A DNA stretch of 64,000 nt from Escherichia coli (lineage in GTDB: Bacteria > Pseudomonadota > Gammaproteobacteria > Enterobacterales > Enterobacteriaceae): assembly GCF_002854065.1 (NCBI RefSeq), contig NZ_CP024147.1; one strand, written 5' to 3'. Shown here piece by piece: positions 4,123 to 32,988 of the stretch. The number at the start of each line of letters is the position of its first letter. Position 1 is the stretch's first letter. The notes under the pieces are model-generated. The model saw nothing but the letters and a program-made list of their open reading frames with translations. It did not search any database and was not told the origin of the DNA. Position numbers and translations under genes: made by a program.

Positions 4123-5034
4123 TTAAATCCCCGCCCCCTGACTAAAATGCTCTTCCCCAAACACCCCGGTGGAAAGGTAGCGATCGCCACGATCGCAGAT
4201 GATCGCTACCACCACCGCACCAGGGTTAGCTTTTGCCACCCGCAGTGCTCCGGCAACCGCGCCGCCGGAGCTGACGCCACAGAATATTCCTTCCCGCACC
4301 GCCAGTTCGCGCATGGTGTTTTCCGCATCGCGCTGATGAATATCCAGCACCTCATCCACCAGAGAAGCGTTGAAAATCCCCGGCAGATATTCCGCAGGCC
4401 AGCGGCGAATGCCGGGAATGCTACTGCCCTCTTCCGGCTGCAGGCCAACAATGGTCACCGGTTTGGATTGTTCGCGCATAAAGCGTGAAACGCCGGTGAT
4501 AGTGCCGGTTGTTCCCATGCTGGAGACAAAATGGGTAATGCGCCCGCCAGTCTGCTGCCAGATTTCCGGCCCGGTAGTGGTGTAATGGGCGTAAGGGTTA
4601 TCGGGATTGTTGAACTGATCGAGCAGCTTTCCTTCACCACGATTCGCCATCTCCAGCGCCAGATCGCGCGCACCTTCCATGCCCTGCTCTTTGGTGACAA
4701 GAATCAGTTCCGCACCATAAGCACGCATCGCCGCACGGCGTTCCTGACTCATGTTGTCGGGCATCAGCAATTTCATGCGATAGCCTTTAAGCGCGGCAAT
4801 CATTGCCAGCGCAATGCCGGTGTTACCACTGGTGGCTTCGATTAACACATCACCCGGTTTAATTTCCCCGCGCTTTTCCGCCTCGACGATCATCCAAAGC
4901 GCAGCACGATCTTTCACCGAACCTGCCGGGTTATTGCCTTCCAGTTTTAACCACACTTCACTGCCGTTATTCGGCCCCATTCGCTGCAACTTCACCAGAG
5001 GCGTATTGCCTATTGTTTGTTCTAATGTACTCAC
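4123..5034 (-). CDS. cysM: Cysteine synthase B (O-acetylserine sulfhydrylase B)
   Basis: PLP-dependent cysteine synthase fold; start refined to the GTG (VSTLEQTIGNTPLV) inside the longer track ORF; adjacent to cysAWUP. Confidence 0.9.
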   Translation of the reverse strand: MSTLEQTIGNTPLVKLQRMGPNNGSEVWLKLEGNNPAGSVKDRAALWMIVEAEKRGEIKPGDVLIEATSGNTGIALAMIAALKGYRMKLLMPDNMSQERRAAMRAYGAELILVTKEQGMEGARDLALEMANRGEGKLLDQFNNPDNPYAHYTTTGPEIWQQTGGRITHFVSSMGTTGTITGVSRFMREQSKPVTIVGLQPEEGSSIPGIRRWPAEYLPGIFNASLVDEVLDIHQRDAENTMRELAVREGIFCGVSSGGAVAGALRVAKANPGAVVVAIICDRGDRYLSTGVFGEEHFSQGAGI

Positions 5035-5054
5035 GATCTCTGTCCATACGTGGT

Positions 5055-5095
5055 GTCGCCTGATGCGACGCTTGCGCGTCTTATCAGGCCTACAG
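5055..5095. repeat. REP (repetitive extragenic palindromic) element between cysM and cysA
   Basis: Sequence cgcctgatgcgacgcttgcgcgtcttatcaggcctaca is an imperfect palindrome of the REP type. Confidence 0.55.
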
Positions 5096-5167
5096 GTTAC
5101 AAACCTTGCCATTAAAAAACCCGGATCGCGGGAAGCGCCTCCGGGCGTTTAACATTCACTCAACCTA

Positions 5168-6265
5168 TCAGGCGCTTTGTGCGAGAGCAAGTTCCTCATC
5201 TCGGGTTTCGATACGCTCGTCGCCGTTATACAGCCGCGCATGTTGCAGACCAACGAATAAACGCTCGCCACGCTGCGGGGCATCGTCGCCATGCATCACG
5301 ACCGTCAGCGGTTCGTTGTACCACCCCAGCGGCTGCACCACTAATTGGGTGTAGTGACCTTTCGGGCTGGCTTCCAGTACCTGTACCGGCAGCGGCGAAT
5401 CGAGGCTGGTACGGCGGCTGATATCCACTTCCCACGGGCGCAGGAAGAGATCCACCGGCCCCTGATACGCAGGTGTGTAGCCCAGCGGCCAGCGATGTGC
5501 GCCAACATGGAACTGCCCGCCGCGAATGGTTCCCTGCAGGCGGTTCACTTCGCCCATAAATTCGAGCACAAAACGGGTCGCCGGTTCGCGCCATACCTGA
5601 TCCGGCGCGTCAGCCTGTTCAATATTGCCCTGGCTCATCACAACTACACGATCAGCTACTTCGGTCGCTTCTTCCTGATCGTGGGTCACAAAAACGCTGG
5701 TGAATTTTAGTTCTTCATGGAGTTGACGCAGCCAGCGACGCAGCTCTTTACGCACCTGCGCATCCAACGCGCCAAACGGTTCATCAAGCAGCAGAATTTG
5801 CGGTTCTACAGCAAGCGCACGCGCCAGCGCTACACGCTGTTTCTGGCCGCCGGAAAGCTGCGCCGGATAACGATCCGCCAGATGGGCAAGCTGGACCATT
5901 TCCAGCAATTTTGTCACTTTCGCTTTGATCGCCGCGGCATTCGGGCGCTCGCGACGCGGCAGCACCGTCAGGCCAAAAGCGATATTGTCGAATACCGTCA
6001 TATGGCGGAACAGCGCGTAATGCTGGAACACGAAACCGACTTTACGGTCGCGCGCATGCAGGCGGCTGACGTCGGTACCGTGGAAACGGATATGCCCGCT
6101 GGTTTGATGCTCCAGCCCGGCGATAATCCGCAGCAGCGTGGTTTTCCCGGAGCCGGAGGGCCCCAGCAACGCGACCATCTGACCAGAAGGAATATCCAGT
6201 GAGATATCGTTCAGCACCTGGGTGCGACCAAAAGACTTCTTAATATTGGCAATCTCAATGCTCAT
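5168..6265 (-). CDS. cysA: Sulfate/thiosulfate ABC transporter ATP-binding protein
   Basis: 365-aa ORF with Walker [10 protein letters not shown] and ABC signature LSGGQKQR. Confidence 0.95.
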
Positions 6266-7130
6266 GATGCTCCTCCTGCTGCGCGCGTTTTTCCTGATTC
6301 TCCAGACGCCACTGCAACATACTCTTTAAAAACAGGGTGATAATCGCCATCAGCGTCAACAGCGCGGCGGCGGTAAAGGAGCCGACGGTGTTGTAGTCCT
6401 GCTCCAGCAATTCAATCTGTAACGGCAGCGAAAGTGTTTCGCCACGAATCGAGCCGGAAACCACCGACACCGCGCCAAACTCGCCAATCGCGCGGGCGTT
6501 GGTCAGCACCACGCCGTAAAGCAGCGCCCAGCGAATATTCGGTAATGTAACGCGACGGAACATCTGCCAGCCAGACGCGCCAAGCAAAATCGCCGCTTCG
6601 TCTTCCTGGCTGCCCTGGCTTAACATCACCGGCACCAGCTCGCGCACCACAAACGGACACGTCACAAAGATGGTGACCAGCACCATTCCCGGCCAGGAGA
6701 ACATGATTTGCAGATTATGTTCATCCAGCCAGCCGCCCAGCGGGCCGTTAGAGCCGTAGAACAGCAGATACACCAGACCGGCAACCACCGGCGATACGGC
6801 AAACGGAATGTCCAGTAGCGTCAGCAGTAACTGGCGTCCGGGGAAGTTAAAGCGCGTCACCAGCCAGGCCAGCAGAATGCCGAACACCAGGTTCACCGGT
6901 ACGGCAATCAGCGCAATCATCACCGTCAGCCAAATCGCGTGCAACATGTCCGGATCGGCCAGATTCTGTAAAACCGGCATCAGCCCCTTGCTGAATGCCT
7001 GCACGAAGATGTAAATCATCGGCACCAGCAGGATGAACGCCGAAACCAGCATCCCGATGCCAATCAGAAACCATTTGCCCCAGTTAATCGGGCGCGCGTC
7101 ATAACGCTTCAATTGGGTAACTTCCGCCAT
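6255..7130 (-). CDS. cysW: Sulfate/thiosulfate ABC transporter permease
   Basis: 291-aa polytopic membrane ORF overlapping cysA start, typical cysUWA arrangement. Confidence 0.95.
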
Positions 7131-7963
7131 TAATGACCTACCACACGCCGACCAAAGCGACTTTGCAGAGTGTTAATTGAGAACAGCAGCAGCAGAGATG
7201 CCGCGAGGATCACCGAAGCAATCGCGCTCGCCGCCGGGTAATCAAACTCCTGCAAGCGCACAAAAATCATCAGCGACGTCACTTCCGTCTTCCAGGCGAT
7301 GTTCCCGGCGATAAATATCACCGCGCCAAACTCACCAAGACTACGGGTAAACGACAGCGCCACGCCCGCCACCAGCGCCGGAGAAAGCTCCGGCAGCACC
7401 ACTTTGCAGAAACTTTGCCAGCGCGTTGCGCCAAGCGTTTCTGCCGCTTCTTCATATTCCGGGCCCAACTCTTCCAGCACCGGCTGCACGGTACGCACCA
7501 CAAACGGGATGCTGGTAAAGGCCATCGCCACCGCGATCCCAAGCCAGGTGTAGGTGACTTTGATATCAAACTTCGCCAGCCATTCACCGTAAAAACCGTT
7601 CACGGAAAAGAGCGAGGCCAGCGTTAAACCGGCGACTGCCGTTGGCAGCGCAAAGGGTAAATCCATCAGCGCATCAAGCAGCGTGCGGCCCGGAAAGCGA
7701 TAGCGGGTTAAGATCCACGCCATCAGCAGACCGAAAACGCCGTTAAAAATTGATGCCACAAACGCCGACAGCAGCGTCACTTTGTAGGCCGCGACCACCT
7801 GCGGGTTGGTGATCACCTCCCAGTACTGCGCCCAGCTCATCTCAGAGAGTTGCATAACCAGCGCAGAGAGCGGTAGCAGCAAAATCAGGCACACAAACAG
7901 CAGACTGGTGCCGAGGCTTAAGGTAAAGCCCGGCAGCACGCGTCTTGATGAAACTGCAAACAT
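7130..7963 (-). CDS. cysU: Sulfate/thiosulfate ABC transporter permease
   Basis: 277-aa membrane ORF, stop overlaps cysW start. Confidence 0.95.
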   Translation of the reverse strand: MFAVSSRRVLPGFTLSLGTSLLFVCLILLLPLSALVMQLSEMSWAQYWEVITNPQVVAAYKVTLLSAFVASIFNGVFGLLMAWILTRYRFPGRTLLDALMDLPFALPTAVAGLTLASLFSVNGFYGEWLAKFDIKVTYTWLGIAVAMAFTSIPFVVRTVQPVLEELGPEYEEAAETLGATRWQSFCKVVLPELSPALVAGVALSFTRSLGEFGAVIFIAGNIAWKTEVTSLMIFVRLQEFDYPAASAIASVILAASLLLLFSINTLQSRFGRRVVGH

Positions 7964-8979
7964 TACTTACGCCCCGCCGCTAACAGCTTGTCTAACTCGC
8001 CGCCGCTGGTGAAATGGGTTTTCATCACTTCCAGCCAGGAGCCAAATTTGTCTTCCACGCGGAACAGCTCGGTCTGCGGGAATTTGTCTTTCAGTTTGTC
8101 CATGACTTCCGGGTTATTTACGCGGTAGTAATAGTCGGTGATGATGGTCTGCGCCTGCGGGCTGTAGAGCCAATTCAGATAGGCAATTGCTGCTTTTTCC
8201 GTACCGTTGTCCTGCACGTTTTTATCGACCCACGCCACCGGGAATTCCGCCAGAATGTTGGTTTTCGGAATCACCACTTCAAAGCCCTGCGCTTCATACT
8301 GTTTGCGGATGTTGTTCACTTCCGACTCGAAGCTGATCAGCACATCGCCCAGGCCGCGCTCGGCAAAAGTGGTGGTCGCGCCACGACCGCCAGTATCGAA
8401 CACTTCAACGTTTTTCAGGAACTGGGTCATAAACTGTTCGGTTTTGGCTTTATCGCCACCGTCAGCTTTGTCCGCTGCGCCCCATGCCGCCAGATAGGTG
8501 TAACGCGCGTTACCGGAGGTTTTTGGGTTCGGAAAAATTAGCTTCACATCGGAGCGCACCAGGTCGTTCCAGTCGTGGATATTTTTCGGGTTGCCCTTAC
8601 GCACCAGGAAGCCCATGGTGGAGTAGAACGGCGAGCTATTATTCGGCAGGCGCGACTGCCAGTCCGCCGGGATAAGCTTGCCTTTATCGTGCAGAATTTG
8701 TACGTCGGTCACCTGGTTATAAGTGACAACGTCGGCTTTTAAGCCCTGCAAAATTGCCAGCGCCTGTTTTGATGACCCGGCATGAGATTGTTTTATCGTC
8801 AGTTTGTCGCCGCCGTTATCTTTGGCCCATTGTTGCTCAAACGGCGGGTTCAGGGCGGCAAACAGCTCGCGGGAGACGTCATAAGAACTGTTCAGCAGTT
8901 CCGTTGCCTGTACATGGCCCGCCAGCAGCAGAGAAGCGACCAGCGCGAGTGAGTTCTTTTTCAGTAAGTTAACGGCCAT
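7963..8979 (-). CDS. cysP: Thiosulfate-binding periplasmic protein
   Basis: 338-aa ORF with signal peptide, first gene of the cysPUWA-cysM cluster. Confidence 0.95.
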
Positions 8980-9136
8980 TGCGCACCCTTATAAATTTAA
9001 TGACTTTCTAATAGCCATCATATTTATAACGGACGTGAAAGGAGTAACGGTTTTATATACCGTTTGGTGATTTGGAAGTTGAAAAGGGAATAAGACGAAA
9101 TCCTCCCCACACATGCAGGGAGGAAACAGAGGTGAA

Positions 9137-9928
9137 TCAGATACCGACGCTGACCGTCTCCGGCAGTGTGCTGCCGCCATCAATCACATTCTGTGTACCG
9201 GTTAAATAGCTGGATTCATCCGATGCAAGGAAGGCCGCCAGTTCGCCGACTTCCAGCGGATCGGCGAGGCGACGCAGCGGGATTGCTTTTGCCATATCAG
9301 TCAGCACCGACTCTGGATCTTCCGGGTTCGACTGGCGGGCAATGCTTTCCGCCATTGGCGTGCGGACGTATCCCGGGCAGATGGCGTTAACGCGAATACC
9401 GGATTGCGCGTACTCCACCGCCAGCGATTTTGTCAGGCCAACAATCGCCGCTTTCGTTAAGGCGTACGCCGTTTCACCCGGATCGGCCACCATATCACCA
9501 GTGACTGAAGACATCATCACAATGCGACCATCTTTGCGGGCAATCATCTCCGGCAGCACCGCCTTCGTGACGTTCCATACGCCTTTAATATTGATGTCAA
9601 TATGGAAATCGCGATCGTCATCGCTCATATCGAGGAAACTGCCCAGACGACAAACGCCTGCGTTATTCACCAGGATATCAATGCGCCCTTCTTTTTCCTT
9701 CGCGCGTTTGATAGCTGCGGCTACCGACGCCGGGTCACGCACATCGGCGACAACCGCCGTACAGCGATGACCACGACCACACAGTTCGTCCGCCAGCTTT
9801 TCGATCTCAGGGGAGATATCCAGCAAGATTAGGTTTGCGCCATGACGCGCAAAAGTTCTGGCAATTCCTTCGCCAATTCCCTGCAATGCGCCCGTAATCA
9901 GTGCTGTCTTGCCCGTGAGTTTACCCAT
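9137..9928 (-). CDS. ucpA: Short-chain dehydrogenase/reductase UcpA
   Basis: Rossmann motif TGALQGIGEG; start refined to internal ATG (MGKLTGKTALITG) at 9926-9928. Confidence 0.85.
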   Translation of the reverse strand: MGKLTGKTALITGALQGIGEGIARTFARHGANLILLDISPEIEKLADELCGRGHRCTAVVADVRDPASVAAAIKRAKEKEGRIDILVNNAGVCRLGSFLDMSDDDRDFHIDINIKGVWNVTKAVLPEMIARKDGRIVMMSSVTGDMVADPGETAYALTKAAIVGLTKSLAVEYAQSGIRVNAICPGYVRTPMAESIARQSNPEDPESVLTDMAKAIPLRRLADPLEVGELAAFLASDESSYLTGTQNVIDGGSTLPETVSVGI

Positions 9929-10056
9929 TTTAATGCTCTCCTTGTTAATACAGAGCGTTACACTCCATTCCCTCTGAAAATACAGGATAAACAAAATATT
10001 GCTGCGGATCAGCTCACTAATTCAGGAAAATCTCAATCCAGTCGCTGCTTTATGCA

Positions 10057-10914
10057 TCATTTCAGGCGTTGTGTTAGCTCACTGCTGCGCTGAATCATTT
10101 TCAATGACTCCACATCATTGAGTTGCACAAGACCAACAAACAGTAAATCGGTAACAGAATTTTGCGCCGTGCGGGTAGACATCGACGAGCTACGCCATTC
10201 GGTTTCACCGGAAACGGTATCGAGCGTGAAATGCGCCAGCCGCCGCAGCGGAGAGTCAGCCAGAGAAGTAATGGCAATCACCGTTGCCCCCTGCTTTCGT
10301 GCCGCTTCTGCGCACAAGACAATCTCTTTTTTACTGCCGCTGTAAGAGATAGCGATTTGTACATCGCCTTTTTTCAACGCCTGGGAAACGGTAGCTTGTA
10401 CGTGCGTGTCGGCTTCGCAGGCCACGCGATAGCCAATTTTCATCAGTTTGAACGACAGATCGCGCCCCACCAGCGCCGATCCGCCCAGGCCCGTTATCTG
10501 GATAAACGGTGCTTTACTGATGACCTCAATGATTTTTTGCAGCCGCGCGTAGTCGAACAACGCGCAGGTTTGCTCCAGCGCCAGCTCTTTTTCGCGATTC
10601 AGTTTGCGGGCAATCACTTCCAGCGAATCATCACTGGTAATCGAACTGTGCAGGTGCAGCGCCGTGGCATTCGTTTTCTCCCGGCTGGCACAGTATTCGC
10701 CTATTAACGCCATACGCAATTCAGTAAATCCTTGTGCGCCGAGCTTCTGGGCAAACTTCACAATACTCGACTGGCTGATGCCGAGCTGTTTCGCCATCTT
10801 GCGCGAAGAGACGGATTTCAGCTCACTCACGTTGGCCCGCAGAAAGTCAGCAATTTTTTGCTCGTTCTCGGTAAATTCACTTTCCGCATTGCGTATTTTC
10901 GTCAGGTACAACAT
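10057..10914 (-). CDS. murR: RpiR-family repressor of murQP
   Basis: HTH plus SIS domain; start refined to ATG at 10912-10914 ([14 protein letters not shown]); divergent from murQ. Confidence 0.85.
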
Positions 10915-11077
10915 CTTCCACTCTCCTGGGCTGGCAGCAAAAATTCCGCTTAAGTTCTTATGACGCTCTTCACACTCTGCGAGTGTAGACTCAATGATTC
11001 CTTTATGTCTGTCAATTCGGGATATATGATTCCATACATCTGCAATTATTTGATCGTAAATAGTAAGGTCACCACCG

Positions 11078-11974
11078 ATGCAACTTGAAAAGATGATTAC
11101 CGAAGGCTCGAACGCCGCCTCGGCTGAAATTGACCGCGTATCAACGCTGGAAATGTGCCGGATTGTCAACGATGAAGATAAAACCGTACCGCTTGCCGTT
11201 GAGCGCGTACTGCCGGATATCGCCGCGGCGATCGATGTTATCCACGCCCAGGTAAGCGGCGGCGGTCGTCTGATTTATCTCGGTGCGGGAACATCCGGTC
11301 GTCTGGGGATTCTGGATGCCAGCGAATGTCCGCCCACCTACGGCGTGAAACCGGGTTTGGTGGTTGGTTTGATTGCTGGAGGCGAATATGCCATTCAGCA
11401 CGCGGTGGAAGGCGCTGAAGATAGCCGGGAAGGTGGTGTTAACGATCTGAAAAATATTAATTTAACGGCACAGGATGTGGTGGTTGGTATTGCGGCCAGT
11501 GGTCGCACGCCGTATGTAATTGCCGGACTGGAATACGCACGCCAGCTCGGCTGCCGTACAGTGGGAATTTCCTGTAATCCGGGGAGTGCCGTTTCAACCA
11601 CCGCCGAGTTTGCCATTACACCGATTGTAGGTGCCGAAGTGGTTACCGGTTCTTCGCGAATGAAAGCAGGCACAGCGCAGAAACTGGTGCTCAATATGCT
11701 CTCCACCGGGCTGATGATTAAATCCGGCAAAGTGTTCGGCAACCTGATGGTCGATGTGGTCGCCACCAACGAAAAACTGCATGTGCGCCAGGTCAATATC
11801 GTTAAAAACGCTACCGGATGTAGCGCAGAGCAAGCGGAAGCGGCGTTAATTGCCTGCGAGCGCAACTGTAAAACGGCCATTGTGATGTTGCTGAAAAATC
11901 TCGATGCCGCAGAGGCTAAAAAACGCCTGGATCAACACGGCGGCTTTATTCGTCAGGTTTTAGACAAGGAATAA
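11078..11974 (+). CDS. murQ: N-acetylmuramic acid 6-phosphate etherase
   Basis: 298-aa SIS-domain ORF upstream of murP. Confidence 0.9.
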
Positions 11975-11977
11975 CCC

Positions 11978-13402
<1,425 letters not shown>

Positions 13403-23799: not shown

Positions 23800-23986
23800 A
23801 AGTCGTTCCCTCAGGAAGAAGTGATGAGTAACATTTCTTCCAGCATTCGAACAATTCTATTTCATCGTTAGCCCTTGTCCTGTAAGGTAATTGTCTTAAC
23901 ACGCCCGTTATTCATCATGCCGAACGCAACCGAACGCGCCGGATACATGATCGGGTTTATCCAGTCGTTATGTCGAGGTATCCGGT

Positions 23987-25192
23987 TTGAGCAAGACACC
24001 ACTCACAGCAAAGGCCATCGCAGCCGCGCAGCCAAAAGACAAGCCCTATAAACTCACCGATTCACTGACGCCAGGACTGTTTTTGCTGGTGCATCCCAAC
24101 GGCAGCAAATACTGGCGATTCAGGTATTGGTTGAATAAACGAGAGTTTTTGCAGGCCATTGGTGTTTACCCGCTAATCACACTCAAAGAAGCACGCAGAC
24201 GCGCCACAGAGAGCCGATCTCTGATTGCTAATGGAATTAATCCAGTGGAAGAAGCACGCAAGGAAAAAGCCATTGATGCGCTCAACATGGCGGCAGGTTT
24301 TAAGACGGTAGCGGAGGACTGGCTGGCTACCAGGGTCAGCGGGTGGTCAGAGTCCTACACGAAACAGGTTAGATCGGCACTGGAAAAAGATGTTTACCCC
24401 GTGCTGGGGAAGCGGTCAATTGTCGATATAACGGCCCGTGACGTGCTGGAATTGCTTCAGAAGAAAGAGCGTACCGCACCGGAACAAGCCAGGAAGCTAC
24501 GCCAGCGTATCGGGGAGATCTTCAAATTTGCCGTTATCACCGAACTGGTGGCAAGAAATCCGGTTGCAGATCTGAACACAGCACTAAAAGCCCGCCGTCC
24601 GGGCCACAACGCATGGCTGCAAATTAACGAAATTCAGGCGTTCTATGAAGCACTTGAGAGAGCCGGGAGCGTCCAGATTCAGACGGCAATACGTTTGCTC
24701 ATATTGAGCGCTCTAAGGACGGTGGAACTGCGTAAAATGCGCTGGGAATGGGTTAACCTGGAAGACGCGATCATCACCCTACCCGCTGAAGTCATGAAGG
24801 CCCGTCGCCCGCATGTGGTCCCGCTATCACGGCAGGCGGTAGAGCTATTGCAGGACCAGTTTACTCGCACCGGATACAGCGCTTTCGTCTTCCCTGGTCG
24901 ATTCATGGATAAGCCCTTGTCTGCCAGCGCGATACTGAAAGCCCTGGAGCGTATCGGATACAAGTCGATAGCCACAGCACACGGCTGGCGTACAACGTTC
25001 AGCACGACGCTTAACGAGTCCGGCAGGTACTCACCAGACTGGATTGAAATCCAATTGGCCCACGTCCCGAAGGGTGTACGCGGTGTATATAACCAGGCGG
25101 CCTATCTCAAACAGCGCCGTCAAATGCTTCAGGACTACGCCGACGCCATTGATTCAATACTGGCTGGTGAAGGTAATCCGCTGGAACCGTGA
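23987..25192 (+). CDS. intZ: P4-type tyrosine integrase of a prophage remnant (TTG start)
   Basis: 401-aa ORF with N-terminal P4-integrase arm motif (KLTDSLTPGLFLLVHPNGSKYWRFRYW) and C-terminal tyrosine-recombinase core; K-12 has intZ next to eutB. Confidence 0.8.
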   Translation: MSKTPLTAKAIAAAQPKDKPYKLTDSLTPGLFLLVHPNGSKYWRFRYWLNKREFLQAIGVYPLITLKEARRRATESRSLIANGINPVEEARKEKAIDALNMAAGFKTVAEDWLATRVSGWSESYTKQVRSALEKDVYPVLGKRSIVDITARDVLELLQKKERTAPEQARKLRQRIGEIFKFAVITELVARNPVADLNTALKARRPGHNAWLQINEIQAFYEALERAGSVQIQTAIRLLILSALRTVELRKMRWEWVNLEDAIITLPAEVMKARRPHVVPLSRQAVELLQDQFTRTGYSAFVFPGRFMDKPLSASAILKALERIGYKSIATAHGWRTTFSTTLNESGRYSPDWIEIQLAHVPKGVRGVYNQAAYLKQRRQMLQDYADAIDSILAGEGNPLEP

Positions 25193-25418: not shown

Positions 25419-26186
25419 ATGCGTAATAGTTTAGCAGTTCGCTTTAGCTTGCAGCAAGGCGAAGAATTATCACAGGAATATCAATTCATCAAATACGAAG
25501 AAGCGCCGGAACAGGTGCAAATAGCTTTTGATGATCAGCACTACGGCAACACTATCCGCTACGACGGTAAAAAATGGTTTCTCAATCCGGTAACAAATGC
25601 CATTCACGTATGTCAAATCATTACGCCAGTAAATAACAGCGCGGATAACGATTCGGCTATTGACGCTGAACTGGTGACAGAACCACTACCGCCACCGCCG
25701 CCAGTACAAGAAAGCGATGTAAAACCCGACGCCATCGATCTGACAGCAGAAGCCAGAGAGCGCAAACAACCGAAGCCGGAACAACCGCAAGCCAAGGATA
25801 ACAAACAGTGGCACGGTAACACGGCGTATCTGAATACGTTTGCTTGTCATCTTCATGAAGTGCTACCACAGGCCATCTATAGCACATGGTGCGACAAACA
25901 AACGGCGGCACACTTCCACCTGCTTTACGCGCTTTGCTACCTGGCAAGCTACGAAAACAAAGATGAAGGTATCGAGCTTGGCGAGGTGTTATATGGTGCT
26001 GAAAAGATCACAAAGGGCGGCGTAGTACCTGGTTTCCATATGGCCCGATCAACGTTCGATATCAAGATTAACGAGCTTGAACAGTGGGGATTAATCAAGG
26101 TAACACGAGGTAAGAAACGTAAGGACGGGCAAGGCAACTTGCCGAACAGTATCAAACTGAACTTTAAGCCGTACAGTTTAAAATAA
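25419..26186 (+). CDS. Hypothetical prophage protein, possibly a winged-helix replication-initiator-like protein
   Basis: 255-aa ORF behind a strong SD (aggagg); proline/acidic linker then a basic C-terminal segment (ELEQWGLIKVTRGKKRKDG) resembling winged-helix initiators; weak inference. Confidence 0.55.
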   Translation: MRNSLAVRFSLQQGEELSQEYQFIKYEEAPEQVQIAFDDQHYGNTIRYDGKKWFLNPVTNAIHVCQIITPVNNSADNDSAIDAELVTEPLPPPPPVQESDVKPDAIDLTAEARERKQPKPEQPQAKDNKQWHGNTAYLNTFACHLHEVLPQAIYSTWCDKQTAAHFHLLYALCYLASYENKDEGIELGEVLYGAEKITKGGVVPGFHMARSTFDIKINELEQWGLIKVTRGKKRKDGQGNLPNSIKLNFKPYSLK

Positions 26187-26194
26187 TCACACTA

Positions 26195-26220
26195 GGCGGG
26201 CAATGTTCCCGCCTTTTCTT
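26195..26220 (+). terminator. Rho-independent terminator after the 255-aa ORF
   Basis: Stem ggcggg / cccgcc with 7-nt loop followed by ttttctt. Confidence 0.5.
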
Positions 26221-26243
26221 TGCCTCAATCCTATAAAATTCAC

Positions 26244-26282
26244 ATCCCGAAAATCGGTATCTGGGTATCCCGAAAATCGGTA
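26244..26282. repeat. Two perfect 16-bp direct repeats ATCCCGAAAATCGGTA with 23-bp period
   Basis: Copies at 26244-26259 and 26267-26282, immediately followed by an AT-rich tract. Confidence 0.7.
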
Positions 26283-27668
26283 AGTAATAATAAGTATTAT
26301 CCTTAAAGGTAAAAACCATATAAGTAAGATCTATCTCTTCAAGAATGTATATATTCACTACGTTCATATATACATGAGAAGTTTCCCTTTCATGCAGTCA
26401 AAACTACATTCATCAGCATCGCTTTCTGCGCTCTCCTTCCCAGCAAGCTGGAAAGGCCCATTCACTCACGCACAACCTGCAAACCAGACCAACATACCAT
26501 CATGGCGATTCGTTCATGGGTAGCGCGGGTATATCTCAAAGGGTGATTTCTTCTTGGTGGACCTTCGGAAGACTTCGAGCAATCGCCAGCTCAAAAGACG
26601 GTCTGGCAGTGATGGTTATCATCGACAGCATTGAGCGCTACCGCGCCAACTTACAGCAGCAGGATAACTACCGAAGGAAAACCCACGCCGAAAGGGATTG
26701 ACTCACTGCAAAGCCAATGGGTTTTATCAGCGTATACAGACCAGACAGGAAACAGCAGCAAAGCAGCGTATAGCCAGGTGCAGACAGTACCATCACACAA
26801 CGCACAGCAGGCTGAGGTGAACACTCAAACAGGTTTATCCCCGCAGCCGACCAACGCAAACCATCCTGACCGTGCCAAATTCGAACGGAATGGTGCCTGT
26901 AACGCGATGAACACATATAACCGCTTACTTGCTTACCTGAAAACTTCACGTCGCCACAGAGCGATTTAGACGCATTATAATTGATGCGATTTCATTAAAT
27001 TTTCACCAGACACCGGAACAACGCCGATTAATCCAGGAATGGATTCATCGACATGCGCCGCTTTCCCCGCAGAACAGTCTCGCCTGAATAGTCTCACCAA
27101 CCAGATTTCAGATTGTCCAATCAGGCACGTCTCATTAAACGACAGAATGCGGCCTACAACGCCATCGCTGCCGATCTCGTTTGAGCAAGGTGCTGAGACT
27201 GAATGACGGACGCCCACTCCTCAGAGCTGAGGAATCGCCACACAGAACGCTGAGATCTGATATTACCGCCGCACCATTCCACGCCAGACGAATCAATCTA
27301 ATCACACCTGAGCAAATGCATTGCCAAAAATTAAGGCCGTCAGAATGCGTTATATTGCGTTTAAACGGCATCTAATTTTAATTAGTTTTGATGTGGTGAT
27401 TGCAGGCAAAAAAAATCCCGCCGGAGAGAGCGGGGAAGTGAAATCAATCGTTGTAGTTATAGATCACATTTTGAGTAAGGGTTACCAGCCCTTGAGTAAT
27501 ATTATCCCTGTATTACGTGAGATGCGCAATTATTTTTTGCTAATTAAAAGTTTTGTAAACATTACAGAATATCCCCTTTCCCTATATGGTAAAAGATGTG
27601 AAACAGGGACATGAGGAATATAATATTAAGTATCAACAGTAATGTTGGTCTTTAATTTCATTCAGGGC

Positions 27669-27710
27669 GCGGTGAGGGTTTTCCCATATTTTTCCTCACC
27701 GCTACTTTTT
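27669..27710 (+). terminator. Terminator/attenuator-like hairpin in the leader of the AlpA-like gene
   Basis: Perfect 9-bp stem gcggtgagg (27669-27677) / cctcaccgc (27694-27702), 16-nt loop, T5 run at 27706-27710. Confidence 0.4.
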
Positions 27711-27721
27711 GAGGTGAGAAC

Positions 27722-27913
27722 ATGAATGATAGCGAATTAATGACGGTGAGCGAGGTAGCCGCTTTATTCGGCGTTACCCGACGCACTATATTCCGCTGGC
27801 TGAACAAGATTAAAGGTTGGCCCGTTCCGGTTACTCCGGTCGGTGCACGAATTAAGTTTATCCGATCTGAGATTTTGGAATTCTATAAAAACAAAGGCGC
27901 TCGCCACCAATGA
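27722..27913 (+). CDS. AlpA/excisionase-family helix-turn-helix prophage regulator
   Basis: 63-aa ORF MNDSELMTVSEVAALFGVTRRTIFRWLNK; HTH typical of prophage AlpA/Xis-type regulators; SD gaggtga 6 nt upstream. Confidence 0.7.
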   Translation: MNDSELMTVSEVAALFGVTRRTIFRWLNKIKGWPVPVTPVGARIKFIRSEILEFYKNKGARHQ

Positions 27914-27989: not shown

Positions 27990-28316
27990 ATGAAAATCAA
28001 AGCAAACACAATTAAAGAAATAACATCAATCAAAGTAAAAGGAGCAGATGCCATGCATTCATTAGACAGTTATTTTCAGCGCACGACAGCCCCTAAATCA
28101 GCCGCCCAGGAACGCCGTGAGGAATTCCAGGAAAAAGTGATGCGTTCTGCTGATTATATTGCGGACAAGTTCGTGGAAACGGTTCGGCCACTTGTTGATG
28201 AAGTAGCTGATAAACTTCAGTCTGAAATGCCGGAAGACATGGAAGGCACTGCAAAGGCGCGACTCCTTTTTGAATTAAGTCGTCGTTTCGGCGTGTCAAT
28301 AAGCACTTTTAAATAA
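27990..28316 (+). CDS. Hypothetical prophage protein (108 aa; may start at internal Met)
   Basis: ORF in co-directional tight cassette; no recognisable motif. Confidence 0.45.
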   Translation: MKIKANTIKEITSIKVKGADAMHSLDSYFQRTTAPKSAAQERREEFQEKVMRSADYIADKFVETVRPLVDEVADKLQSEMPEDMEGTAKARLLFELSRRFGVSISTFK

Positions 28317-28333: not shown

Positions 28334-28876
28334 ATGGACGCATTTGATGTACTGACAAACAAAGGCGATGAACTGGTAGCACAGCGTGATAAAACCGCCA
28401 ACGAAGGGGAACGCGCACTGTTAAATAAGCAGATTAAAGCGATCCGTATGGCCCAGTTTAAATTAATCAGCAATGAAGTTATCGAAATAATTAAACCGCA
28501 GATCCCACAAATCGTTGCTGACGCTATTAAAGCCGCCGGACTGGAGAAACGCATTGCCGGGCTGAAAACGAACGCAGAGAAAATGGAGATGCACAAACAG
28601 AGCGGTGCTCCGACTCCGGATGAGTACTTCTCACCGGATGCTGAGTTTATGGCGCAGGTTGAGGAACGTCTGGGTAGCTGTCTCACCGAGGAACAGCGTC
28701 GCTATTTTGATGGAGTGGATAGTTCGGCAGGTATTGACCTGAACTCGTGTTTCGGTCGTGAAATTGAGCATTTTGATGCCGCCCCGTCTATGCCGGAGCC
28801 AGAACCAGAAATGGCCGCCGATCCTGAAGCTGAGCAACGGAAACGCGTATTCAATGCGATAGGGATTCGGTACTGA
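28334..28876 (+). CDS. Hypothetical prophage protein (180 aa) with acidic C-terminal tail
   Basis: Strong SD (ggagga) 7 nt upstream; predicted helical N-terminal half and PEPEPE-containing acidic tail; no recognisable motif. Confidence 0.55.
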   Translation: MDAFDVLTNKGDELVAQRDKTANEGERALLNKQIKAIRMAQFKLISNEVIEIIKPQIPQIVADAIKAAGLEKRIAGLKTNAEKMEMHKQSGAPTPDEYFSPDAEFMAQVEERLGSCLTEEQRRYFDGVDSSAGIDLNSCFGREIEHFDAAPSMPEPEPEMAADPEAEQRKRVFNAIGIRY

Positions 28877-28927: not shown

Positions 28928-29302
28928 ATGAACAAATCGGACAAGACAAACAGGATAAGCAGTCTCGAAACAATGTTCGGGAACTATATTAGCACAAGTC
29001 CGGAGAAAATCATCATGTTGGCACTACGCATCATGCAGGGCATCGCTAAGACCCTCGCAGAACATGTCTTAGACCTGAAACATTCGCCACTGAGCAAACA
29101 GGCCATGAAGCGCCAAACGCTTCGTCTGTGGGCTGAATATTCGCTTGGAACTATCAATAAAATCATCGACATGAAATCGGGGCCGAGCAACCAGAGCGCG
29201 GAGGAAATGGAGTTCATCAGGCGTTTAATTCTCATTCGCAGAGATATTCATAGCCAGTTACACAGCGTGGGAATCGATATTAATGATGGGACGGGCGATT
29301 AA
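28928..29302 (+). CDS. Hypothetical prophage protein (124 aa)
   Basis: ORF in same cassette; basic, helical; no recognisable motif. Confidence 0.5.
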   Translation: MNKSDKTNRISSLETMFGNYISTSPEKIIMLALRIMQGIAKTLAEHVLDLKHSPLSKQAMKRQTLRLWAEYSLGTINKIIDMKSGPSNQSAEEMEFIRRLILIRRDIHSQLHSVGIDINDGTGD

Positions 29303-29340: not shown

Positions 29341-29571
29341 ATGAAGCAAGATATTGCAGACAGGCTGGAGATACTCGAAGGCCAGCGGGCAGAAGCGAAA
29401 CAACTACGTAAGCAGGCCAGAAGAGCGCACAGGAACTACGAAGCAGAATCACTGACCGCTTTCATCAACTTCACAAACCGTTGCATCCAGGAGTGTTACA
29501 GGGAGGATGCAGAAAACTGGCTGGATTCATTGCCAGAACAGACTCTGCATGAACTGAACGGCGACCAGTAA
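29341..29571 (+). CDS. Hypothetical prophage protein (76 aa, coiled-coil-like)
   Basis: SD gaggag 7 nt upstream of ATG; Arg/Glu/Gln-rich helical sequence. Confidence 0.45.
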   Translation: MKQDIADRLEILEGQRAEAKQLRKQARRAHRNYEAESLTAFINFTNRCIQECYREDAENWLDSLPEQTLHELNGDQ

Positions 29572-29859
29572 ATAAATCCAGTACGTTTCCCGCAGTGCGC
29601 ATAACGTACATTATGTGAAAAACGATATGGATGTATATCAGTATTGATTTCATTGAGAAAACTGGGTTTTCAGTGGCACAGACAAAGAAGCATAGCTGAT
29701 ACAGCTTTATAAGCCATTGATTCTATTAAGTGATGTTTTTTGTGATTGGTTGAAGCAAACCAAAACACGATGCCACTGAAGCGTTAATAAACTGTTTCAA
29801 TGTGAAATTATTAGAGTAAAGAACAATTTGGAGGGTCCGCAAACGCGGATAACAATATC

Positions 29860-32040
29860 ATGAGTGGAAATCTCGGGACCATATACTACGAGGTCGATGC
29901 CCGCACTGGGAAACTTCTTATCGCGCAACAGCAGGCGGAAGAGGCGTTCGATCGCATTGAACGAGGAGCGCGGAAGGCTGATAGCGGCGTCAAAAAGTTA
30001 AATACGCAGATGACTAAAACATCAGCCGCAGTCAAAACCAACCTTTCCCCGGCAATCCGTAACGCATCATACCAGATCGCAGACCTTGCCACTCAATTGC
30101 AGATGGGCGGTAATGCGCTTCAGGCGTTCGCTGTGCAGGGTGCGCAGTTATTAGCTGGCTTTGGCACGATGGGCGCGGTAGCTGGCGCGGTGCTGGCTAT
30201 CGCTGGCGCTATGGGTGGAAGCCTGGCACAAGGCGCTGATAGTGCAGCCGGATCGGTTGAGTATCTGGACAAGGCGATCACCAAACTGAACGAGGTCATA
30301 GCTGTAAATGAACAGGGCGTGACGGTGATGAGTGATAGTTACGCCAGACTTTCTAAGGTTAACGCTGAAGTAGCGAAACAGATGCGGAACATGGCTGAAA
30401 TTCAGGCAATTGCAGCACTGCGTGACCTGAAAGAACAGGCAAGCCAGGCACAGGGGGAAATGTCGTCATTCTGGCGCAGCTTGCAGGGTGGTAAAGCTGA
30501 CGCAGCAGCAGCAGCACAGGCACTTGATGATCTTGGAATCACAACCAACGACTACAAAGAGGCGATAGCCATACTGAACGCCAATCAGCCGGATACACAG
30601 GCGCAAATGGCAACGCTAGCCAAATCCGTGATGTATGTTGGAGAGCAATATGATCTGACCAACCAGCAAGCATACGAATTTATACGCGCACTAAATAAGG
30701 CCGCGACAACGAAAACGCCGGAAGCCATGCAGGAGCTATCTGGCTTCATGCAGGTTTTGCTTCAGGATACCGAAAACGGTAACGAGGCATTCCGTGAACT
30801 GGCTATCAAATTCGTCGATGCACAAACCAAAGGCGCAATGTTGGAGGACCAACTAAACCGACTGAAAGGCGCTATTAGTGACGCAGCCACAGAAGCCAGA
30901 AACGCAAACTTTACCACTATGCTCAACACCGTCGCCGCACGCCTGGCAACCATTGAGCAAGGTTGGGAGGCAGGCGTTAGGATGCAGATGAAAGCCCAGG
31001 GCTACACTGAAGAGCAGATCGATGAATATGTGAACATGGAAACGGCGTACCGTGATGCAAAAGCCGCTTTGGACGAGAAGAACAAGGCCGACCGTGAAGC
31101 TATTGCGCTATCCAAACGCCAGGCCGCAGAAGCAGCCCGCAAGGCAAAACAGGAAGAAGCTGAAGCACAACGCAAGGCCAAACAGTTAGCCGCGCAGAAG
31201 GAGCAGGCAGGACGCTTTACGCAGCAAGTAATGACGGAATACCTGACGACCGTAGATCCGGCAACAGGCAAGGCGTTTAACCCTGCCGCACAAGTAGAAA
31301 TGCAGGAGCAGCAGAAGAAAGCGGCGCTGGATAAATACAGACAGTTGGGCGTCCTGGATGAACAGCAGTACCAGAACACGCTAACCGCCATCCAGAAAAC
31401 CGCGTCAATGCGCCGCCAGCAAATCATCAAAGACGAGGCCGACACGTTATTCAACAATCAGCAACAGTTGATCGGCACATTTGGCGATTTCTTCGGTGAA
31501 CTGTCTGGAGTCATAGCAGACGGTGCAGGTGAGCAAAACGCGGCATATCAAGCGCTATTTGCTGTGCAGAAGGGTTTTGTATTGGCATCAGCAGCTTTAA
31601 GCCTTCAGAAAGCGCTTGCTGAGGCAAACGCCTTGCCTTTCCCGGCTAATCTTCCGGCCTATGCGCAAGCTATGTCAGCAGGTACGCAGATCATTTCAGC
31701 TATTCGTGGAATAGCTTTCGGTGGCGGACGCTACAACGGCGGCGCGGTTGGTGCTGGCAACCTGTACCGCGTGGGTGAACACGGTAAGCCTGAGATATTC
31801 AAGGCGAACAATGGCAGCCAGTACATGATCCCAGGTGATAACGGTCGCGTGATAAGTAATCGTGACATTGGCGGCGGTGGCGGCGTAACAATCAACAGCC
31901 CGATCACCATTAACACTACGAATGGCTTCAGTGATGAAGACTCAAGGCGTCTTGAGGAAGCGATGAAGCGCGTAGCTATGGGCGTTTGCAGGCAGGAGTC
32001 AACCAGACCGGGAGGAATGTTAGCCCCGCGCCGTCGTTAA
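29860..32040 (+). CDS. Phage tail tape-measure-like protein
   Basis: 726-aa Ala/Gln-rich mostly helical ORF with glycine-rich hydrophobic N-terminal segment, long coiled-coil region (AEAARKAKQEEAEAQRKAKQLAAQKEQ) and C-terminal Gly-rich motif GGGRYNGGAVGAGNLYRVGEHG resembling the lambda gpH C-terminus as recalled. Confidence 0.65.
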   Translation: MSGNLGTIYYEVDARTGKLLIAQQQAEEAFDRIERGARKADSGVKKLNTQMTKTSAAVKTNLSPAIRNASYQIADLATQLQMGGNALQAFAVQGAQLLAGFGTMGAVAGAVLAIAGAMGGSLAQGADSAAGSVEYLDKAITKLNEVIAVNEQGVTVMSDSYARLSKVNAEVAKQMRNMAEIQAIAALRDLKEQASQAQGEMSSFWRSLQGGKADAAAAAQALDDLGITTNDYKEAIAILNANQPDTQAQMATLAKSVMYVGEQYDLTNQQAYEFIRALNKAATTKTPEAMQELSGFMQVLLQDTENGNEAFRELAIKFVDAQTKGAMLEDQLNRLKGAISDAATEARNANFTTMLNTVAARLATIEQGWEAGVRMQMKAQGYTEEQIDEYVNMETAYRDAKAALDEKNKADREAIALSKRQAAEAARKAKQEEAEAQRKAKQLAAQKEQAGRFTQQVMTEYLTTVDPATGKAFNPAAQVEMQEQQKKAALDKYRQLGVLDEQQYQNTLTAIQKTASMRRQQIIKDEADTLFNNQQQLIGTFGDFFGELSGVIADGAGEQNAAYQALFAVQKGFVLASAALSLQKALAEANALPFPANLPAYAQAMSAGTQIISAIRGIAFGGGRYNGGAVGAGNLYRVGEHGKPEIFKANNGSQYMIPGDNGRVISNRDIGGGGGVTINSPITINTTNGFSDEDSRRLEEAMKRVAMGVCRQESTRPGGMLAPRRR

Positions 32041-32163
32041 CCAAATCCCACGCCAGGGGAACAGACTGGCGGACCTTCAAAGACGGTCGCACACCGTGTT
32101 TGACATAATTTATTGTTTTTTGCTTGCTCTTATTATTGCAGCCGTTAGGGTAATGACTCCAAC

Positions 32164-32667
32164 TTATTGATAGTGTTTTATGTTCAGATAATGCCCGATG
32201 ACTTTGTCATGCAGCTCCACCGATTTTGAGAACGACAGCGACTTCCGTCCCAGCCGTGCCAGGTGCTGCCTCAGATTCAGGTTATGCCGCTCAATTCGCT
32301 GCGTATATCGCTTGCTGATTACGTGCAGCTTTCCCTTCAGGCGGGATTCATACAGCGGCCAGCCATCCGTCATCCATATCACCACGTCAAAGGGTGACAG
32401 CAGGCTCATAAGACGCCCCAGCGTCGCCATAGTGCGTTCACCGAATACGTGCGCAACAACCGTCTTCCGGAGACTGTCATACGCGTAAAACAGCCAGCGC
32501 TGGCGCGATTTAGCCCCGACGTATCCCCACTGTTCGTCCATTTCCGCGCAGACGATGACGTCACTGCCCGGCTGTATGCGCGAGGTTACCGACTGCGGCC
32601 TGAGTTTTTTAAATGGCGGAAAATCGTGTTGAGGCCAACGCCCATAATGCGGGCGGTTGCCCGGCAT
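32164..32667 (-). CDS. insB: IS1 InsB reading frame (expressed as InsAB transposase by -1 frameshift)
   Basis: 167-aa ORF overlapping the insA 3-prime end in the -1 frame, classic IS1 organisation. Confidence 0.85.
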
Positions 32668-32861
32668 CCAACGCCATTCATGGCCATATCAATGATTTTC
32701 TGGTGCGTACCGGGTTGAGAAGCGGTGTAAGTGAACTGCAGTTGCCATGTTTTACGGCAGTGAGAGCAGAGATAGCGCTGATGTCCGGCAGTGCTTTTGC
32801 CGTTACGCACCACCCCGTCAGTAGCTGAACAGGAGGGACAGCTGATAGAAACAGAAGCCAC
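32586..32861 (-). CDS. insA: IS1 InsA protein
   Basis: 91-aa [46 protein letters not shown] with zinc-finger cysteines. Confidence 0.9.
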
Positions 32862-32988
32862 TGGAGCACCTCAAAAACACCATCATACACTAAATCAGTA
32901 AGTTGGCAGCATCACCAGCTTTACTAATATATTGCAGCTGGACCGCTTACCCTGAATATTCAGGGTAAGCGTGAGAGTTAAAAAAGAA

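Follow-up and report, generated by a model that had tools for sequence, protein, structure and literature searches.

A tape-measure gene in a small integrative island

The gene analyzed here occupies positions 29860-32040, on the plus strand, of a 64,000-nucleotide stretch of Escherichia coli DNA (contig NZ_CP024147.1, assembly GCF_002854065.1; hereafter the window), and its product of 726 amino acids is related to the tape-measure proteins of siphophages, hereafter abbreviated as TMP. The gene lies in an island that follows eutB (end ~23800) with, in order, the integrase gene intZ, a gene for a YffL-like protein, 1.5 kb of gene-poor DNA, an excisionase-like helix-turn-helix (HTH) gene and four small genes; beyond the TMP gene come 108 bp of residual island DNA, a copy of IS1 and then maeB, talA and tktB. 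An initial annotation of the window had described an intact reading frame of Ala/Gln-rich composition with a glycine-rich hydrophobic N-terminal segment, and this description is confirmed. The open reading frame (ORF) runs from an ATG to a single stop codon, with frame and start matching those given by RefSeq in a sister strain, and its product contains 16.9% Ala, 8.8% Gln and 8.7% Gly. Its Gly/Ala-rich hydrophobic segment comprises residues 87-126 (30118-30237, plus strand; Kyte-Doolittle windows >1.2), and a further hydrophobic segment is found around residues 560-585. RefSeq labels the gene "hypothetical" because the family signals are weak or nil: Pfam gives only a marginal match to TMP_2 (E 0.007) and the NCBIfam scan of the protein gives none.

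The proposed tape-measure identity is well sustained by phage families and full-length comparisons. Residues 1-455 match the TMP family phrog_1538 with E 7e-103 and residues 418-725 match phrog_1107 with E 7e-58; five more TMP families of PHROG also match the protein, and its sole relative in PDB is TMP gp18 (9occ_M, E 5e-11). Alignments computed without composition correction show 28-34% end-to-end identity to phage TMPs, which are 727-803 residues long as compared with 726 here and are encoded in complete siphophage tail modules (terminator, tube, a DUF6246 chaperone-like gene, TMP, then M-L-K-I-J). Judged from these matches, the gene encodes a true tape-measure homologue. The C-terminal motif that starts at residue 620 (FGGGRYNGGAVGAGNLYRVGEHGKPEIF, also given as FGGGRYNGGAVGAGNLYRVGEHG) had been likened to the end of lambda gpH, a resemblance that we have dropped since the pairwise match (VGAGNLYRV vs IGVGNLYRL, 6/9 residues) is not significant (E 0.33). 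The motif is widespread in TMPs, with 62-71% identity over ~40 residues in many siphophages of Salmonella, Klebsiella and Escherichia. The only marginal match with lambda gpH, to its region 68-134, involves the N-terminal hydrophobic segment (36% over 67 residues, pairwise E 0.002).

No tail genes flank the TMP gene, as the initial annotation had stated. Homologues of major-tail, chaperone, tail-tip, capsid, portal and large-terminase genes are absent from the whole 64-kb window in tblastn searches with phage markers, none of these structural families appears in PHROG scans of the neighbouring proteins, and no overlapping plus-strand ORF is present upstream that could form a frameshifted chaperone pair. 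The position typical of a tail module, with tube and chaperone pair upstream and tip genes downstream, is found for the TMP gene neither in the window nor in any island variant.

The same gene (90-100% DNA identity) is present in islands bounded by eutB and eutA in strains 13TMH22, J3, CV839-06, TST3, MDK9L1, fM51a and CE0011b. These islands are ordered as intZ, a variable slot, the HTH gene, small genes, the TMP gene and sometimes a few cargo genes, and the core of integrase, HTH gene, small genes and TMP gene stands between eutB and eutA in L002, L003, L004, L012 and L013 (the compared loci bear L numbers, used here where they have to be told apart). Four sister islands, L005, L006, L007 and L009, have TMPs that are 43-53% identical to the window TMP and share the same site and the same layout. 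Intact islands measure 9-12 kb and carry attL as well as attR, at the stop codon of eutA; genes for capsid, portal, large terminase, tail tube and tail tip are absent from all islands examined. The TMP gene directly precedes eutA in several strains and is the final gene ahead of eutA in CV839-06; since it is the last gene before eutA in several intact islands, it follows that no tail module ever adjoined it. The refuting condition named in the initial annotation, that homologues always reside in complete tail modules, has a mixed outcome: it applies to the distant ones (~30-35% identity) but not to the close ones, which are all found in tail-less islands, as are several of the 43-53% identical ones.

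The left end of the island is defined by the 8-bp attL core TCAGGAAG at positions 23811-23818 (plus strand), in the intergenic site between the eutA stop codon and the eutB start. The attachment sites did not emerge from an exact-repeat search and were resolved by comparing occupied with empty sites: against the empty site of O157:H7 (L011), the insertion falls at the eutA stop codon, attL and attR each contain the core TCAGGAAG, and the arm of attR is conserved. The intZ gene is present in 437 of 5426 complete genomes, as one copy that is always chromosomal, and 72 of these 437 genomes have a window-type TMP (60 with coverage of at least 80%). The TMP gene is thus the standard, conserved last gene of small integrative islands of the IntZ/CPZ-55 type, named after the K-12 element discussed below, and not the leftover of a decayed prophage.

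The TMP gene is under strong purifying selection across the islands, and its length is conserved. The 120 best protein clusters all come from E. coli and nearly all have 725-729 residues, with exceptions of 689 and 718; eight DNA copies contain no stop and no frameshift, and their pairwise ratios of nonsynonymous to synonymous divergence (dN/dS) are 0.05-0.23 at dS values of 0.16-0.72. Constraint is evident in each block of 100 codons except the recombinant 3' end. By what is generally known of E. coli diversity, a dS of up to 0.72 is large for copies that share one site in one species, and it suggests an old lineage that moves horizontally. The two ends of the protein have a history of their own. 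The N-terminal module (residues 1-60; 29860-30039, plus strand), which is 53-58% identical to the TMPs of the temperate siphophage mEp021 and the STEC307 prophage, is 97% identical to that of island L009, with only 27% identity in the middle of the protein. The C-terminal module (residues 620-726; 31717-32037, plus strand), presumed to be a docking end, is 65% identical to the mEp021 TMP (E 3e-48), and its 107 residues are 100% identical in the window, L005 and L007, with middles at 21-32%; alternative C-terminal alleles occur in L003, L014 and L015 within genes that are otherwise 95-97% identical. On this pattern of identities, the TMP ends are shuffled among islands independently of the middle.

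The copy in the window has lost the right end of its island. The TMP stop codon ends at 32040, and IS1 (768 bp; 32149-32916, minus strand; IS1B transposase annotated in sister strain CUWW06) begins after the 108-bp gap that the initial annotation had correctly reported; the DNA of this gap (32041-32148, plus strand) matches the intact island L002 up to the IS1 end. Both IS1 ends could be located and show no target-site duplication, and maeB follows directly, with its terminator region against the outer side of IS1, where L002 has instead three further island genes, attR and the region from eutA onwards. The lack of a duplication and the abutting maeB, seen within 32041-32988, imply that IS1 deleted the right end of the island together with attR and eutA-eutS. 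(The window strain retains only eutR-K-L-C-B of the eut operon, and strain CUWW06 [L001 14157-14993] shares the IS1-maeB junction and has a further 197-bp deletion adjacent to IS1, by which the last 29 TMP codons are gone.) The window TMP differs by one amino acid from that of the intact island L002 (13TMH22). The intact frame in this genome hence reflects recent truncation, one of the two options raised originally, and not selection in this lineage; the other option, co-option, holds only in the sense of a phage TMP captured by a satellite-like element.

These data also bear on the possibility that the element is what remains of a complete prophage after decay of the tail module, with one long ORF left intact by chance or by very recent truncation. 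Such a history would agree with the truncation by IS1 and the loss of attR in the window, with the conventional naming of CPZ-55 as a cryptic prophage, and with the degenerate look of the 1.5-kb stretch at 26187-27721 (no strand assigned). This variable or degenerate slot contains short ORFs only and no convincing gene, its homology to an ORF of L007 is scattered over three frames, and the equivalent gene is annotated as frameshifted in L003 and L004. A decayed prophage is nevertheless contradicted by the intact islands, with both attachment sites, the TMP gene last or near-last and no tail genes, by the low dN/dS values, the lack of disruption in any of the eight copies and the near-uniform length in 120 clusters, and by several deeply diverged variants that keep the architecture and the site. 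We consider this history very improbable, and the idea of a chance survivor that had lost its tail module can be set aside.

Other genes of the island and the TMP leader

The tyrosine integrase IntZ (401 residues; 23987-25192, plus strand, as all features of this section; PHROG integrase E 1e-65) shows 89-93% amino acid identity to its counterparts in K-12 and in every island variant. The next gene, at 25419-26186, encodes the YffL-like protein of 255 residues, which has no Pfam match, is 27% identical to K-12 YffL and 24% identical to an HTH-domain protein in the same position of L004, and is possibly a regulator or a DNA-binding protein of replication. The HTH_17/excisionase-family protein of 63 residues (27722-27913), which resembles AlpA and Xis, matches the PHROG family "excisionase and transcriptional regulator" with E 1.5e-8 and is conserved in all variants, its score for the excisionase domain TIGR01764 (25.6 bits) being below the cut-off of 28.8. 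What lies between intZ and the HTH gene is cargo that varies among the islands: a YafO-type toxin with its partner, an AIPR-family protein, an ISNCY transposase or an HNH endonuclease (coordinates include L006 1916-2395 and L012 2247-3096). Such variation recalls the hotspots that other satellites have for accessory or defence genes.

Four small proteins follow. That of 108 residues (27990-28316; 99-100% identical in L002, L003 and L004) forms part of what we call the window-type module, together with a helical protein of 76 residues (29341-29571; 100% identical in L002-L004) that is specific to this module and whose gene occupies the position of the small-terminase-like gene of the sister islands. 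The 180-residue protein (28334-28876; 98-99% identical in L002-L004), for which Pfam and PDB yield no match, has EYF/YFDG-type motifs; of note, EYF, YFDG and SYF(D/S) motifs are repeated in acidic, proline-rich tails both in this protein and in two proteins of the L014 module B (4583-5398). The remaining protein belongs to the YffM family (95 residues, 29015-29302, with a longer ORF from 28928), is 35-49% identical to K-12 YffM and its counterparts in L005, L006, L007 and L009, and is common to all island variants, a property otherwise limited to the integrase, the HTH protein and the TMP. AlphaFold models it as a three-helix bundle (pLDDT 89), a fold that matches only generic helical bundles. 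PHROG, NCBIfam, PADLOC, Pfam and PDB-sequence scans returned nothing informative for the neighbours of 255, 108, 180, 95/124 and 76 residues. As to replication, the only candidates seen in the islands are the YffL-like protein or an HTH_36 DNA-binding protein, with no primase or helicase.

Between the 76-residue protein and the TMP gene lies a conserved non-coding leader of ~290 bp (29572-29859), with a hairpin (GTCCGC-N4-GCGGAT) located between a GGAGG and the TMP ATG. The leader is retained, with many invariant columns, across islands with differing upstream modules, even in L009 in which the TMP is ~50% diverged. It corresponds to no Rfam family, lacks a sigma-70 consensus on the plus strand and has no similarity to the mEp021 DNA compared; Rfam, promoter and terminator scans of the island detected nothing above chance. 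The leader could serve as a promoter activated by the helper or as a site for packaging.

CPZ-55 of K-12 and the mEpimmI phages

The closest known element is CPZ-55 of K-12 (intZ, yffL-yffS), which occupies the same eutB/eutA site with the same attL flank and has an IntZ 92.5% identical to that of the window. The two elements share YffL-like and YffM-family proteins; moreover, yffO of CPZ-55 corresponds to the gene of sister islands that encodes a protein like the small terminase (TerS), and yffP corresponds to the gene just upstream of TMP in L007 and L009. They differ in that CPZ-55 (6.8 kb) has no TMP gene, whereas the window island has one but is devoid of yffN/O/P; CPZ-55 has retained yffQ/R/S, which the window island lost with attR through IS1. 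In L023 (K-12 MG1655), positions 6618-6741 join the start of the TMP leader, via an overlap of ~25 bp, to the stretch found after the TMP stop codon of L009. The comparison indicates that the TMP gene was cleanly deleted from CPZ-55 between yffP and yffQ, and K-12 CPZ-55 is, on these genomic grounds, a TMP-deleted member of the island family. CPZ-55 excises at low frequency (PMC3105296) and has been lost by precise excision in ER2796 (PMC4444293), and the CPZ-55 site is empty in MC1000. No paper in the literature searched connects satellites with CPZ-55, intZ or any of the yff genes.

Among phages, TMPs close to that of the island are found in the mEpimmI group (mEp021, mEp010, mEp013, mEp044, mEp554 and MagusPhagus), gut coliphages with heads of ~60 nm and tails of ~130 nm (PMC11893012). 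In our phage collection, all best matches to the N-terminus come from this group and mEp021 provides the strongest match to the C-terminal third. The island TMP is homologous to the mEp021 TMP (781 vs 726 residues) over its whole length at 28% identity, which is distributed very unevenly: ~60 N-terminal residues are 57% identical and the 107 C-terminal ones 65%. More generally, the termini reach 53-71% identity with the TMPs of mEp021 and one related prophage, against ~20% for the middles (the central ~550 residues). Unlike its island homologue, the mEpimmI gene is part of a full tail module, with tube and DUF6246 chaperone-like genes followed by M, L, K, I and J.

The affinity with mEp021 extends to other genes of the sister islands. 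Their TerS-like proteins, assigned to Pfam PF20901 in L007 and L009, are 31-40% identical to the small terminase of mEp021, and L006 encodes an HK97-gp10-like protein with 45% identity to mEp021_59 (E 4e-36). Over its first 36 residues, a 129-residue protein of L009 (8190-8579) shares 44% identity with the N-terminal end of TerL, the large terminase of mEp021 (E 4e-8); to judge from this similarity, it could mimic the end of TerL that binds TerS. Only these four kinds of island gene (TMP, TerS-like, gp10-like and the mimic of the TerL N-terminus) match mEp021, and the window copy has only the first. In related phages, the TMP gene lies 1-5 kb away from the tube and chaperone genes (L017 3264-3680 and 6338-8187; L026 6738-9961; L027 5146-9940), and the intervening genes are unrelated and in part run in the opposite direction (Arc-like repressors, antirepressors, KilA-N). 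The phage TMP gene thus starts a unit of its own, and this arrangement may have eased its capture by the islands.

The islands as candidate phage satellites

Our confidence in the descriptive findings presented above is high. As to their meaning, the islands have several hallmarks of satellites, namely an integrase, an excisionase-type protein, defined attachment sites and a small size without modules for capsid, tail or lysis but with a few homologues of the candidate helper's morphogenesis genes, and we slightly favour the interpretation, drawn by analogy, that the gene encodes a functional TMP with which a satellite island of the CPZ-55 family makes chimeric helper tails. The island would be a satellite of temperate siphophages similar to the mEpimmI group. 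During helper growth, the conserved TMP termini would dock onto the helper's tail-tip initiator and its tail-terminator or chaperone machinery, and the island TMP would replace the helper TMP or compete with it. The resulting chimeric tails would be ~8-9 nm shorter (726 vs 781 residues at ~1.6 A per residue) and carry island DNA, and helper yield would be reduced. Such a mechanism has been demonstrated by experiment for the PLEs of Vibrio cholerae.

Several observations weigh against this interpretation. The literature searched holds no induction, packaging or transfer experiment on any island of the CPZ-55 family, and family scans recognise no small terminase, replication protein or tail assembly chaperone in the window-type module. 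Genomes with the island are usually without a second such TMP at the DNA level (median one place per genome), so that a helper is not normally co-resident; blastn of the island non-coding DNA against positions 24-46 kb of mEp021 shows no similarity and so reveals no shared pac/cos site in that part of the phage. Viral contigs of IMG/VR hold no close TMP relative: the best match reaches 36-37% over most of the length, and the matches are only to phages of 40-50 kb, with at most 51% identity over long stretches. K-12 CPZ-55 persists despite the loss of its TMP and, for the copy in the window in particular, the loss of attR means that it cannot excise and is stranded.

Some of the same facts could be explained if the island TMP acted solely in defence, as a decoy that poisons siphophage tail assembly and has no role in island transfer; it would co-assemble with the TMP of an infecting siphophage, or titrate its tail-tip and chaperone partners, and thereby protect the population. 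The pattern of termini that match phage TMPs around a middle that does not, the lack of an identifiable packaging gene in window-type islands, and the cargo beside int that includes toxin-antitoxin and AIPR genes are all compatible with this possibility, for which there are precedents of tail-assembly interference by mobile elements in PLE11 Rta and in Tai systems (PMC11364771). Yet a decoy needs its docking ends only, and the full length of 726 residues varies by no more than 3 in almost every one of the 120 nearest clusters, with purifying selection acting also on the central region. Furthermore, sister islands with the same type of TMP have small-terminase-like and connector genes, which argues for packaging, and neither the TMP nor any of the small proteins matches a defence family of PADLOC, a likeness to HTH proteins of the mad1 type being seen only for the HTH protein. 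A purely defensive decoy seems unlikely to us.

TMPs act at the inner membrane in DNA entry and are targets of exclusion systems (Cumby et al. 2012 and 2015, cited in PMC11364771). A co-opted envelope role is conceivable, for instance as a membrane protein that blocks the route through the inner membrane taken by incoming phage TMPs (superinfection exclusion) or as another factor beneficial to the host, and the Gly/Ala-rich hydrophobic segments, a usual feature of the regions by which TMPs insert into membranes, would suit it, as would the conserved leader that sets the TMP gene apart from the upstream genes. The protein nevertheless lacks a signal peptide as well as any match to a defence family; its conserved docking termini and ruler length fit a structural TMP rather than a membrane blocker, and the association with TerS-like and connector genes would be left unexplained. 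We regard such a role as quite improbable.

The interpretation of the islands as satellites can be compared with what is known of other satellites, in which TMPs have already been recognised, very recently: experimentally in PLEs and by prediction in some cf-PICIs and in EPIPs. The TMPs encoded by PLEs enter chimeric tails, have been detected in PLE virions and are required for transduction (PMC11838301; PMC12987554, Nature 2026), and putative tmp genes have been noted in other satellites, including some cf-PICIs (PMC12987554, Extended Data Fig. 10 legend). The PLE of Vibrio cholerae resembles the islands in being a small integrative element that has no tail-tube or tail-fibre genes and encodes a somewhat shorter, diverged TMP homologue, with chimeric tails of reduced length as the outcome to be expected. 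However, its helper is the lytic myovirus ICP1, it encodes a tail assembly chaperone and in many cases a baseplate hub, neither of which is found in the island, and its TMPs are ~20% identical to the ICP1 TMP overall, whereas the island TMP resembles that of the candidate helper at the termini only (53-71%). Function has been demonstrated for PLE and is inferred for the island, and no sequence relationship between the two is claimed. PICIs and cf-PICIs of Enterobacteriaceae share with the islands a tyrosine integrase, an AlpA/Xis-like HTH protein and a size of ~10 kb, and with the sister islands also a small terminase and an HNH endonuclease, but the islands have neither the set of capsid, portal, protease and connector genes of cf-PICIs nor a recognisable primase-replicase as in classical PICIs. 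The EPIP satellites of Mycolicibacterium, compared here by their description, have a reported TMP together with genes for a small terminase and head-tail connector (bioRxiv 10.64898/2025.12.02.691453); they differ in their actinobacterial host, their serine integrase and their tails, which are longer and more variable than those of the helper. With no chaperone, hub, capsid genes or primase, the island family is distinct from PLEs, cf-PICIs and EPIPs.

Comparable elements seem to be recurrent in Enterobacterales. A scan of one genome per species with an alignment of island TMPs retrieved 73 loci, ~60 of which are ordinary prophages; in eight others (L037, L040, L041, L042, L049, L059, L071 and L074), which belong to Pantoea, Erwinia, Chimaeribacter, Proteus, Leclercia and Pasteurella, the surroundings of the TMP homologue contain no genes for capsid, tail tube, tail tip or fibres. 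A P4-alpha-like primase/helicase (phrog_1139) was confirmed by PHROG scan in all three of the loci tested (L040, L071 and L074), ORFs of similar size occur at the primase position in most of the other tail-less loci (L037, L041, L042, L049, L059), and L037 and L042 also carry a DUF6246 chaperone-like gene. The TMPs of these eight loci have 807-1136 residues and the same C-terminal motif, and lie at about 7000-12600 in each locus. The contexts of P0123 (L024 and L025) look similar to the primase-bearing elements without tail genes. We give about an even chance to the broader proposal that CPZ-55 islands, the K-12 element included, are unrecognised satellites of mEpimmI siphophages of the gut, that they remodel the tail of the helper by means of a modular TMP, with docking modules swapped by recombination so as to follow the helpers and a ruler drifting at constant length, and that the primase-bearing class makes this strategy a common one.

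Satellite TMPs and chimeric tails have been proven experimentally only for the PLEs of Vibrio (2025-2026). If the proposal is true, E. coli would offer a system in which the candidate helpers (the mEp phages) can be cultivated and K-12 genetics applied, and it would become directly testable how a satellite TMP beats that of its helper, which ends dock where, and what is gained from a different ruler. It also carries a lesson for annotation, since a lone TMP gene beside an integrase should not be taken for prophage debris. For K-12 itself, CPZ-55, one of its nine "cryptic prophages", would be reclassified as a satellite remnant, and putative roles would emerge for the small-terminase-like yffO and for the TMP that K-12 is missing.

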